Shown here: positions 22,282 through 57,307 of the stretch, piece after piece
How the letters are laid out: each line of letters opens with the position of its first letter
Numbering within the stretch: position 1 is the stretch's first letter
DNA from: Mageeibacillus sp.
GTDB lineage: Bacteria > Bacillota > Clostridia > Saccharofermentanales > Saccharofermentanaceae
Length of the DNA stretch: 64,000 bases
Direction of reading: 5' to 3'
NCBI GenBank assembly: GCA_022484595.1
Contig: JAKVLB010000002.1
Span: forward strand, 73,635-137,634
The notes under the pieces: generated by a model
What the model was told of the DNA's origin: nothing
What the model saw: only the letters and a program-made list of their open reading frames with translations
Databases searched by the model: none
Program-made: the position numbers and the translations under genes

Positions 22282-22315
22282 AAAAAAAAACCGGCGAGAA
22301 ATAAATCTCACCGGC
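22282..22315 (-). terminator. Intrinsic terminator of small upstream transcription unit
   Basis: CCGGUGAGA-UUUAUU-UCUCGCCGG followed by U9. Confidence 0.85.
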
Positions 22316-22530
22316 AATCACTTATTAAGTTGTAATCATCGCGATACGGTTGGATATGCAGTTCACTTTTGAGCTAAGCTCAGTTTAAGAAAATATAACC
22401 TTACATCGAAGAATTAACTGAACCAAGCAAGGCCAACCGCTCAATCGATTGCTCTTCATTACCCATTGGTCTCACCTCCCGTAGCTGTATCACTTTATCT
22501 TGCTTAAGTGACCCGTTCTTTTTTTTGATA
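22282..22530 (-). ncRNA. Unannotated small transcript (sRNA and/or micro-peptide mRNA)
   Basis: Extended -10 TGcTATACT (22544-22536), SD GGGAGGTGA (22480-22472), micro-ORFs at 22466-22401 and 22459-22385, and its own terminator. Confidence 0.5.
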
Positions 22531-22643
22531 GTTCGAGTATAGCATTGCATTACCGGGAAAGCATTAACAAAAGGCAACAAAATTTTGACAAAAATGTTAA
22601 CTATTTTGTATATCAGTCAATATCCCTGAACAAAGAAGAACAA

Positions 22644-23300
22644 TCACCCGACAGCCTCAATCAGCCCGCTGATTTCATCTGTAGTCAACGGCCGGTTCTG
22701 TGCGTTAACCGCGTATGTGAAGCCTCCCGCGGTCCATGCCGCTACTGACCAGGAGTTGTCATTACCGCGAAGAATTACGGATTTACCAGCAACTGTAACT
22801 GTTCTTGTGACCTTGTAATCTGTATAATCACCACTTATGTCAGAACTGCCTGAAGCTTTGAGGACTTCGAGACCGAGACTTGAGTCGGAATCAAAATATG
22901 TAATGGCAATTGTATCTCCGAATCGTACGCTGATTAGGGAGTTGCTATATGGTTCCACTGTCTGCGGAGCCGTCATTGTAAACCCGGTTATTTTCGCGGC
23001 CTCATCCATGCTGTCAACTTCTTCTATCGGACTTCCGGAAAAATCGAGATAATCGGGCATCGATTCTGAAGCTGTTTCAGAAGACACCGTCGATATCTGA
23101 CCCGTCGCAGTTTTGAAAATGCCTGTATATTGTGCAAGAAAAAACATCGCAACTGCACATGCCGCTGCCGATACTGCGAGCACCGCCGGTCTCAGACTTA
23201 TCATCCTGCGTCCGGTGCAAAACTTTGCTGCCTCTTCGACATAGCAATCGTCGACTCCCGTAAGCGCGCGCATCAGCATCTTTCCCTTTGATTTCATCAT
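22644..23300 (-). CDS. Membrane anti-sigma factor (DUF4367-like C-terminal domain)
   Basis: N-terminal LMRALTGVDDCYVEEA motif typical of clostridial anti-sigmas, a single TM, and an extracellular domain ending in WT.GGFTY. ATGA overlap with the ECF gene. Confidence 0.75.
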   Translation of the reverse strand: MMKSKGKMLMRALTGVDDCYVEEAAKFCTGRRMISLRPAVLAVSAAACAVAMFFLAQYTGIFKTATGQISTVSSETASESMPDYLDFSGSPIEEVDSMDEAAKITGFTMTAPQTVEPYSNSLISVRFGDTIAITYFDSDSSLGLEVLKASGSSDISGDYTDYKVTRTVTVAGKSVILRGNDNSWSVAAWTAGGFTYAVNAQNRPLTTDEISGLIEAVG

Positions 23301-23875
23301 AACCGGAAGCCCTCCTTCCCGAGATAGCTGCGCAGCTCGTCGCGAGAGCGTTTGAGGCTCATCTTGACTTTGCTCACAGAATAACCTGTATTTGCCGCGA
23401 CATCTGCGACTGAATCTCCGAACCAGTATCTCCGCATGAATATGACGCGGGAATCGCGGCGGAGCGTACCAAGGAAAGTGTTTATTAACCCGGTGAGAAG
23501 TTCTGATTCAGCGGATTCTTCAACCGCTGAGCATTCGGTATCTGTTCTGTCCGGAATGCACTCCTCAAGTTCATCTGTAAGCAGTCCTGTACTGCCCTGT
23601 CCCCGCTTGACGGCATTTCGTCTGTCATACATGTCAAGCGACAGATTGCGCGTAATTCTGGCAAGAAAACTGCATAGCGAATCAGGCCTTTGCGGAGGTA
23701 TGGTATTCCATGCGTGAAAATATGTATCATTCTCGCATTCCTGAGCATCTTCGGTGCTGTGAAGAATGTTCACGGCAATGGTACAAAGCAGACGTCCGTA
23801 AGAGCTTTTCGACTCTGTTATCGCGTCTTCCGACCTGGCAAAAAACAGTTCTATGATTGATTCATCATCCATCAT
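23297..23875 (-). CDS. ECF RNA polymerase sigma factor
   Basis: DDESIIELFFAR, DAQECENDTY..AW, FLARITRNLSLD and region 4 IFMRRYW.GDSV.DVA...G.S.SKVKMSL.RSR. Confidence 0.93.
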   Translation of the reverse strand: MMDDESIIELFFARSEDAITESKSSYGRLLCTIAVNILHSTEDAQECENDTYFHAWNTIPPQRPDSLCSFLARITRNLSLDMYDRRNAVKRGQGSTGLLTDELEECIPDRTDTECSAVEESAESELLTGLINTFLGTLRRDSRVIFMRRYWFGDSVADVAANTGYSVSKVKMSLKRSRDELRSYLGKEGFRL

Positions 23876-24360
23876 TGTGCCGGACTTATACTGACGTCCT
23901 CAACGCCTGTTATCTCTGCGTTGCCGTCAAGATCTTCGTAAATGTAAACCTTTACGAATGTCGGTTCAGAGTCAGGAATGACAACTGTTTCACGGCAAAG
24001 AATGCAGTAATTGGTGCCGGCGACGACTTGTGTCCCGAGCAGCGCCACAGGCTCATAATCCGCACCGTCAAGGTTCTCGGTCGCTTTGTCAAAAGCAGCC
24101 CCGGCATCCGAACCGGACTCAATGCTCCAGTCCCCGCCGTTTGTCTCCCATCCGCCGAGTACCATATCAGATTCATCTGCGCTTTCAGAGGAATCGGTAC
24201 TTACGTCAGCTGCCGATGTATGTGATTCCGAAACAGAAGATTCTGCGGAAACGGAAGACGAGGCGCTCGTTGTCTCGACCTTACTTTGCGGAATACATCC
24301 TGCCAATGCTACCAGAACTGTTACGGCAACCGCCGCTGTCTCTAATCTGTTGATTCTCAT
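23872..24360 (-). CDS. Lipoprotein with C-terminal cystatin/stefin-like domain
   Basis: Lipobox LAGC, Ser/Glu-rich linker, then LGGW...TQVVAGTNY...VKVY...ITG, which parallels stefin A (PGGL...TQVVAGTNYYIKV...LKVF...LTG). Confidence 0.7.
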   Translation of the reverse strand: MRINRLETAAVAVTVLVALAGCIPQSKVETTSASSSVSAESSVSESHTSAADVSTDSSESADESDMVLGGWETNGGDWSIESGSDAGAAFDKATENLDGADYEPVALLGTQVVAGTNYCILCRETVVIPDSEPTFVKVYIYEDLDGNAEITGVEDVSISPAQ

Positions 24361-33032: not shown

Positions 33033-33106
33033 TGGCTGCCGAACAAGGATTCGAACCTTGACTAGCGGTGTCAGAGGCCGATGTGCTACCATTACACCAT
33101 TCGGCA
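33033..33106 (-). tRNA. tRNA-Gln (anticodon CTG), CCA encoded
   Basis: Acceptor stem TGCCGAA/TTCGGCA, D arm, anticodon loop CTCTGAC, T arm CAAGG-TTCGAAT-CCTTG, 3' GCCA. Confidence 0.95.
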
Positions 33107-57139: not shown

Positions 57140-57200
57140 ATATACCTCCATACAGAATTCTGTCTGCCGGAGAATTCAAACGGAGGAAAAAACAATAAGC

Positions 57201-57286
57201 AACTATCCCTACGCCGGCATTATCCGTCAGGTTCAGCGGGTCGGCTTAAAGCCCTCTCAGCCGCTGTATGCAGCTCCCCGTATTTC
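57201..57286 (-). promoter_or_regulatory. TPP riboswitch
   Basis: GGGGAGC...GCUGAGAG...GACCC..UGAACCUGA.GGAUAAUGCCGGCGUAGGGA consensus. Confidence 0.96.
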
Positions 57287-57307
57287 TGTTTGTCGACCGT
57301 GATAATA

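Follow-up and report, generated by a model that had tools for sequence, protein, structure and literature searches.

A 64,000-nucleotide stretch of contig JAKVLB010000002.1 (Mageeibacillus sp.; hereafter the window, whose numbering is used throughout) contains a predicted free-standing RNA gene of about 250 nt at 22544-22282 on the minus strand. Judged by comparative sequence analysis, this Saccharofermentans-specific element is a real and undescribed RNA family, limited so far to that rumen genus, and the whole unit is well beyond chance expectation. Its architecture is conserved, its downstream helix covaries and its mini open reading frame (ORF) is kept without any constraint on the encoded amino acids. 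We infer that the RNA is transcribed and translated, responds to some trigger and may act on a target. With moderate confidence, we regard it as a structure-gated RNA with a translated mini-ORF, that is, a candidate for a dual-function or translation-gated small RNA (sRNA).

A conserved RNA unit confined to Saccharofermentans

Stretches with 69-89% identity to the element were found by BLAST in 14 of 24 genomes of the same genus, and none of 16 genomes from other families gave a match. A covariance model built from 40 distinct copies matched 57 of 100 genomes of the genus, mostly with one copy each. Likewise, 50 of the 99 genus genomes searched contain a degenerate 18-mer covering the Shine-Dalgarno (SD) sequence and the AUG, which was missing from all 201 genomes of 50 further genera in the order; a reversed control motif scored 0. 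A search of about 185,000 species genomes for the exact 19-mer from the SD to codon 2 yielded 42 contigs. Some 37 of these carry true elements and come from Clostridia of the rumen and gut (under the record titles Saccharofermentans sp., Ruminococcaceae or Clostridiales bacterium), and the remaining five are unrelated chance matches. A metagenome scan with a degenerate version of the RBS strand (strand 1, see below) produced 120 loci, mostly ordinary genes with strong SDs, together with six more main-family copies and one new variant, L260. The near-invariant motif across copies is AGGAGGUGAG(A/U)CC(A/G)AUGGG.

Rfam 15 gave no match in 22282-22545 at the gathering score. At E <=10 only LhrC appeared (20.4 bits vs a threshold of 110), aligned to the terminator only, next to chance snoRNA matches, and permissive thresholds applied to eight homologous loci revealed nothing relevant. 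The same holds for a full-text literature search with Saccharofermentans and 'small RNA'. A first-pass annotation of this DNA had proposed an undescribed sRNA or dual-function RNA with translational switching, and had suggested conservation and Rfam as checks; the structure is indeed conserved and no Rfam family matches. The core of that proposal stands, namely the conserved structure, the SD, the mini-ORF and mutually exclusive pairings at the ribosome binding site (RBS), whereas its second ORF, the alternative pairing that it named and its outer helix were lost on comparison with relatives.

The predicted fold of the minus-strand RNA (-66.8 kcal/mol) is more stable than those of its dinucleotide shuffles (z -2.18), which is not the case for the plus strand (z -0.93). 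Within the window's genome, the 381-nt region around the element is single-copy, and neither a second copy nor an RBS mimic was found at <=3 mismatches to a 25-mer. Tandem copies exist in loci L003 and L004 (G010:C11, G024:C29), where they lie about 370-400 nt apart, have diverged and each possess a promoter region and a terminator.

A predicted three-strand switch at the ribosome binding site

The element carries a strong SD, correctly recognized in the first-pass annotation and conserved in relatives, with 8 nt between the GGAGG core and the AUG. The 8-nt match of the window's SD to the anti-SD ranks in the top 2.4% of long ORFs in the window's genome, and the 9-nt match of its relatives in the top 0.5%; the anti-SD was assumed, because the 16S 3' tail was not found in the assembly. 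Around this site, the following features form the predicted switch (all on the minus strand):

22480-22472: Shine-Dalgarno sequence GGGAGGTGA (DNA) or GGGAGGUGA (RNA); AGGAGGUGA in relatives, with invariant columns
22466-22401: mini-ORF (ORF1) MGNEEQSIERLALLGSVNSSM, 21 codons plus stop; ATG at 22466, stop at 22403-22401
22465-22477: strand 1 (RBS strand) AGGUGAGACCAAU, from the 3' portion of the SD up to and including the AU of the start codon
22419-22440: strand 2, within ORF codons 9-16; its partner is strand 1 (RBS closed) or strand 3 (RBS open)
22342-22365: strand 3, UGAACU ... CCAACCGU AUCG; pairs with strand 2
22408-22413: pyrimidine tract UUCUUC, UUUCCUCC or CUCUCCU in relatives; weak in the window

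RNAalifold, run on a plain MAFFT alignment, reported a helix of 13 bp between the RBS (22477-22465) and ORF codons 10-14 (22437-22425), together with a GAUUC:GAAUC helix that shows 17 double changes. This RBS hairpin is the conserved competitor that the first-pass annotation had missed; the UACGG/CCGUA pairing suggested there instead is present only in the window. Among 47 distinct main-family copies, pairing in the core of this RBS helix reaches 98%. For 16 representatives, the RBS:ORF duplex has an energy of -13.7 to -22.2 kcal/mol (z -1.0 to -5.7 vs shuffled ORF segments). Moreover, the helix has been re-made with different letters in at least five sublineages, including compensatory changes in the upstream tandem copy:

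Main family: GAGACC:GGUCUC
Second copy in G010 and G024: GCAAGACC:GGUUUUGC
Subfamily 2 (G059, G079, G092, G018): GAGUCC:GGAUUC
G094: GAUUCCAAUG:CAUUGGAAUU
G110: GUCCGAUG:CAUCGGAG
Further variant: metagenome contig L260

Strand 2 can also pair with strand 3. This pairing includes the middle helix GCGGUUGG/CCAACCGU, which had been drawn by hand from the window and turned out to be conserved and covarying. Strand 2:3 cells are paired at 84.5% in the unfitted and at 87.3% in the model-fitted alignment, while slid controls pair at 25-47%. Double-sided changes amount to 50-52 cells, in comparison to 20.4-20.7 in column shuffles (0 of 500), and the clearest covarying pairs are 114-210 (G-C 30, A-U 8, U-A 3) and 129-196 (A-U 26, G-C 17). 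The ORF:downstream duplex reaches z < -2 in 12 of the 16 representatives, all four subfamily 2 members included. Many of these pairs are G.U, which the opposite strand would turn into A.C; this favours an orientation on the minus strand, as had been noticed from the window before. Two further helices drawn there fared less well. The outer helix between the 5' and 3' ends, GGUCACUUA/UAAGUGAUU, exists only in the window. The third, GUUCAGUU/AACUGAGC, is not conserved and occupies one side of the conserved local hairpin UGAGC/GCUCA; its counterpart in homologues is GGUUCA/UGAACU.

Constrained folding of the 47 copies placed the two states 3.4 +/- 3.4 kcal/mol apart (E(B) - E(A)), with the RBS-closed state usually lower. 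As the folds lie within a few kcal/mol, the RNA appears poised and most copies would be mostly closed. The mean unpaired probability from SD to AUG is 0.30, and the window copy is predicted to be more open (0.56). A large stability advantage of the strand 2:3 fold over the RBS hairpin was considered and rejected, since constrained folding gave the opposite by about 3 kcal/mol on average. The pyrimidine tract is a possible anti-SD, in that 87% of its cells can pair with the SD GGAGG if G.U pairs are counted; no covariation accompanies this pairing, because the SD never varies.

Based on these data, we propose the following sequence of events. During transcription the RBS hairpin (strand 1:2) would form first and close the RBS, and strand 3 could later capture strand 2 and open it. 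A translating ribosome would have to unzip strand 2 from either partner. Because SD, AUG, open frame and length are kept and the peptide evolves as if neutral, the output of the system would be ribosome occupancy and probably not the peptide. A ribosome on the RNA could shield it or change its fold, or make strand 3 and the conserved 3' tail available to act in trans. A more specific form of the model, which we consider rather improbable, is a translation-gated riboregulator, a stand-alone sRNA that reports the translational capacity of the cell. Here, translation of the sequence-neutral mini-ORF would unzip strand 2 and only then free strand 3 and the 3' tail, or stabilise the RNA, and the three-strand switch would set the threshold.

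Several observations weigh against the structure-gated, translated mini-ORF RNA. Strand 1 is almost constant in the main family, for which reason no double-sided covariation of the RBS helix was seen there; the support for this helix comes from a by-eye comparison of sublineages and from duplex energies. No RBS helix is weaker than that of the window itself, with -13.7 kcal/mol, z -1.0 and one A.C mismatch, and the relatives compared are not independent samples. A sigma-70 consensus scan called no promoter at the element, because there is no canonical -35 at 17 +/- 1 nt upstream. A genome-wide duplex search for targets among 2,230 crude translation-initiation regions yielded huge internal loops and no outliers and was uninformative. 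Finally, the pN/pS of about 1 reported below would be equally expected of a non-coding RNA, in which case the open frame would be a structural by-product.

The mini-ORF stays open while its peptide varies freely

ORF1, which had been predicted with 21 amino acids, is present as annotated, and its frame is open over 16-21 codons in 47/47 distinct main-family copies and over 17-22 codons in divergent copies. From the same point, the remaining two frames run for 0-47 and 1-7 codons in the 47 main-family copies. The first 48 nt (codons 1-16) are free of indels in spite of hypervariable codons 3, 5 and 6. The ratio of non-synonymous to synonymous changes (pN/pS) is 0.96 over the whole ORF, with 1.04 for the unpaired codons 2-8 and 0.71 where the ORF is paired. 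The off-frame values are 0.73 and 1.73, and codon-position entropies revealed no third-position excess in ORF1. Taken together, the amino-acid sequence appears unconstrained and evolves as if neutral. The second, overlapping ORF of the first-pass annotation (ORF2, 22459-22385, 24 aa) can be read in the window but is not a conserved frame: 13/47 copies have no start, the others vary between 5 and 45 codons, and its pN/pS is 1.73.

The coding test is compatible with a purely non-coding sRNA, in which the SD-like sequence and the AUG make no product. The perfect SD would then be a 5' stabiliser that binds the 30S subunit, or a pairing or protein-binding site, masked by the hairpin. We regard this as unlikely. 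A pN/pS in the ORF frame that is no better than in the other frames, the missing third-position excess, the constraint of pairing on the 3' half of the ORF, the hairpin immediately before the SD, and a strong terminator with a conserved unpaired 3' segment, as in trans-acting sRNAs, would all fit. However, the AUG is invariant and ideally spaced, and the frame is open in all main-family copies and all divergent subfamilies (16-22 codons), which is not true of the other frames. In addition, the 48 indel-free nucleotides contain a hypervariable 18-nt stretch, and selection to re-make the RBS-occluding helix in five sublineages is most readily explained if ribosomes would otherwise initiate there. 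The cry3A leader of Bacillus thuringiensis is an example of the STAB-SD 5' stabilisers, which have no start codon at initiation distance. The element is similar to them in its near-perfect SD close to the 5' end and beside a 5' hairpin, which could bind 30S and protect from 5' decay, but differs by its invariant AUG at 8 nt, the maintained frame and the masking of the SD itself.

Conversely, ORF1 could be an ordinary small-protein gene with a peptide of 16-22 residues as effector, the RNA structure only tuning its translation. The strong SD, the AUG and the kept frame and stop agree with this, as does a pattern common to the subfamilies (MG, a polar or acidic stretch, a short apolar patch and a Ser-rich tail), and in the main family codon 4 remains restricted to Glu or Asp. 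In contrast, the pN/pS is close to 1 even in the unpaired loop codons 2-8, and radical changes such as Leu/Ser at codon 13 track G.U/G-C pairing and not chemistry. One-nucleotide indels that shift the frame near the C-terminus are tolerated (16-21 aa variants), and the peptides of different subfamilies share no similarity beyond MGSE. We therefore consider a peptide effector improbable.

The same peptides bear on the suggestion of a type I toxin-like mRNA, with a toxic peptide silenced by SD sequestration and an antisense RNA. In hok and tisB, type I toxin mRNAs, metastable hairpins sequester the SD. A hairpin of this kind is embedded in the ORF of aapA3 in the aapA3/IsoA3 system of H. pylori (PMC6733600). 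The element resembles these mRNAs: its very strong SD is tightly occluded by intramolecular pairing in a short hairpin whose partner lies inside a tiny ORF, and a longer-range pairing competes. A small hydrophobic, membrane-active peptide is not encoded, though. The peptides are polar (GRAVY, the grand average of hydropathy, -0.7 to +0.25 in 12/13 tested; +1.13 in one copy), the longest apolar run is <=6 residues and the best 11-residue Kyte-Doolittle window is <=1.93. With apolar runs this short, no peptide would be able to span a membrane, and there is no amino-acid constraint. Promoter scans of the opposite strand revealed no antisense partner: the window has no promoter-like site there and none recurs among L008, L009 and L090, although consensus scans can miss promoters. 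Conserved pairing of the 5' and 3' ends is also missing, and the element is chromosomal, single-copy and syntenic, neither scattered nor island-borne. A toxin mRNA is thus extremely improbable.

Putative promoter, terminator and conserved 3' elements

The outer parts of the unit consist of the following features (all on the minus strand):

22562-22592: promoter-upstream region, ATGTCAGAAAACGTTCAC..TTGTAACA in relatives; degenerate in the window
22544-22536: extended -10 box TGCTATACT, read directly; TGnTAnAnT is kept in homologues at the same distance from the SD
22489-22512: 5' hairpin P1, GUCACUU / AAGUGAU, directly 5' of the SD; in the minimum free energy (MFE) fold
22386-22403: stop codon inside the U-rich motif UAAGGUUAUAUUUUCUUA, which forms the small hairpin P4
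22370-22382: hairpin P5, UGAGC-UUA-GCUCA; main-family form UUGAG/CUCAA
22323-22335: unpaired 3' segment UUACAACUUAAUA; ACAnCUnAAYA in relatives, nearly invariant columns
22282-22315: intrinsic terminator, a 10-bp stem (6 G-C; 22315-22290) with a 6-nt loop and nine U

Both ends of the unit had been seen in the window before, and both are conserved: the extended -10 box in relatives and the stem-loop followed by nine T as terminator. The promoter assignment is based on the conserved extended -10 and its position, and transcription is predicted to start near 22529. Every homologue carries a terminator at the same place, with a stem sequence that differs between lineages, and promoter and terminator accompany the element through differing gene contexts. 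The promoter-upstream region can be aligned across loci with different gene neighbours and is possibly an activator site. In five genomes, its motif (<=3 mismatches) occurs once per genome, at the promoter of the element itself. A regulon sharing this motif was accordingly rejected, no match having been found beyond that promoter in the five genomes. Likenesses to CcpA, CodY, WalR, PhoP, Rex and Spo0A boxes were also considered for the promoter region, and none fits well in a by-eye comparison.

A hairpin at the P1 position is found in every homologue, variable in sequence and length and with many indels. As P1 is the only structure 5' of the SD, a conserved aptamer upstream of an expression platform, as in riboswitches, was not found. 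On the 3' side, AGGUUUUAUUUUCUU recurs in the main family and the divergent subfamilies. P4 is 79-83% paired and P5 92-93%, the latter with a G-C pair that is invariant in 47/47 copies. P5 is absent from subfamily 2, and the P3/P4/P5 junction is likewise conserved in the main family and absent from subfamily 2. The unpaired 3' segment is a candidate seed or protein site.

Gene context and probable read-through

Upstream of the element, the window contains a 218-aa gene without a Pfam family that ends at 22644 and is preceded by an extracytoplasmic function (ECF)-type sigma factor and, farther upstream, a U32 peptidase. On the other side, the terminator of the element is followed by a separate promoter (TTGACA-17-TATTTT) at 22261-22233. 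The element therefore fills its own slot between two other units. Between the upstream co-directional gene and the promoter of the element, no terminator was found in the window (22545-22643) or in the homologous gaps of relatives. Transcripts of the upstream operon therefore probably continue across the element as far as its terminator, so that the RNA may exist also as a 3' untranslated region (UTR).

The upstream neighbours vary among relatives and lie about 50-100 nt from the start of the element, with no terminator of their own; they include a U32 peptidase (at least six loci), a DUF815 ATPase and an ilvN-linked gene. In L006, L007, L008, L010, L013 and L015, the U32 peptidase gene is directly followed by the element. 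The window has a 162-aa gene, the ECF sigma factor and the 218-aa gene (22644-24360) between the two, and in comparison with the six relatives this three-gene unit looks like an insertion.

The downstream neighbours vary as well and comprise trpE, an AI-2E-family transporter and a gene for a 56-aa protein, mostly with a -10 box of their own. The 56-aa protein family is rich in Lys, Asp and Glu (MDIDVNKIKD...; e.g. L108:1346-1513, L111:1282-1449) and has no match in Pfam, NCBIfam or PDB. Its gene is present in 76/100 genus genomes and absent from the window's genome. It lies directly 3' of the element in subfamily 2 (G059, G079, G018), in G094 and in at least nine main-family genomes, which looks like an ancestral neighbourhood in which the element has persisted even without the 56-aa gene.

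These neighbourhoods raise the question of a cis-acting leader or attenuator, in which translation of the mini-ORF would control terminator read-through into a downstream gene, either the 56-aa gene or the T-box/trp operon of the window. In leader-peptide attenuators such as trpL, ermCL and pyrL, a short ORF is present in which ribosome position outweighs sequence. The element shares with them a chain of exclusive helices with one strand inside the ORF and a terminator downstream. It lies directly upstream of the 56-aa gene in the genomes named above and upstream of trpE in the window, L002, L011, G059 and G079, and in subfamily 2 no clear promoter was seen between the terminator and the 56-aa gene. 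A promoterless regulated gene downstream is accordingly possible in subfamily 2, but was not found in the window or most relatives. There, the element ends at a strong terminator (in the window with nine U, ahead of the separate promoter and the T-box leader), and the genes behind it are unrelated between loci and separately promoted in most of them. Unlike in attenuators, the alternative helices do not overlap the terminator: its hairpin is intact in both fold types (MFE predictions), and no antiterminator was found, the terminator 5' arm having no conserved complement and the arms no conserved alternative partner. The comparison with attenuators therefore fails because no helix competes with the terminator. 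Moreover, the window's genome keeps the element without the 56-aa gene, and the tandem copies are likewise at odds with a leader function. Neither Trp codons nor a repeated diagnostic codon occur in the main-family mini-ORFs, and the subfamilies have no conserved codon run in common; arrest motifs are not excludable by sequence alone. Overall, control of a downstream gene in cis is very unlikely.

Some details of the flanking regions are worth recording. The T-box leader of the window (22220-21930, minus strand) scored 73.8 bits, under the Rfam gathering score of 93; it has its own terminator (21936-21905), followed by trpE-trpG-trpD, and its specifier appears to be UGG (Trp) in the Rfam alignment, as judged by eye only. 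In the whole window, the only Rfam matches at gathering score are a thiamine pyrophosphate (TPP) riboswitch (74.3 bits) and a tRNA gene (57189-57290 and 33036-33106, minus strand). In L030, L036, L044 and similar loci, the ATG of the AI-2E-family transporter follows 6 nt after a TGATATAAT box (TATAAT-ACTCGC-ATG), which suggests a leaderless mRNA. Members of subfamily 2 (L090-L093) carry a conserved GTGTTATAAT just 5' of the terminator hairpin. It resembles the extended -10 of the 56-aa gene in genomes without the element (L148, L151); if it is that -10, the terminator of the element would sit in the 5' UTR of the 56-aa gene.

Relation to known regulatory RNAs and significance

RNAIII/hld of Staphylococcus aureus is a dual-function sRNA in which folding of the RNA delays translation of the small ORF. 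Another example is SR1/SR1P of Bacillus subtilis (PMC3526287; PMC12612679), both functions of which, including the peptide SR1P, are reported to be highly conserved (PMC3526287). Like dual-function sRNAs, the element would be an independent unit in the range of about 200-500 nt, to judge by its conserved sequence signals, with its own promoter and terminator and a short ORF with a real SD in a conserved structure. Unlike SR1P, its peptide is not conserved at the amino-acid level (pN/pS 0.96), and there is no relationship to SR1 in sequence or in Rfam. The element thus represents a new family of RNAs that varies known themes; it works most like dual-function sRNAs and the SD hairpins of toxin mRNAs and falls outside both classes by their defining tests.

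Almost no regulatory RNAs have been described in rumen Clostridia. The family offers a compact example from comparative genomics of a three-strand RBS switch, with one strand inside the ORF that it would control and an occluding helix that has been re-invented in several sublineages. A frame that is kept while its peptide is not is typical of regulatory leader ORFs, yet the element has no obligatory downstream gene. The new covariance model is available for the annotation of rumen genomes and metagenomes. If the riboregulator model is true, the element would couple the activity of a regulatory RNA to ribosome availability without a downstream gene in cis. Should translation be confirmed, the family would make it possible to ask whether a free-standing sRNA can read ribosome occupancy itself as its signal.

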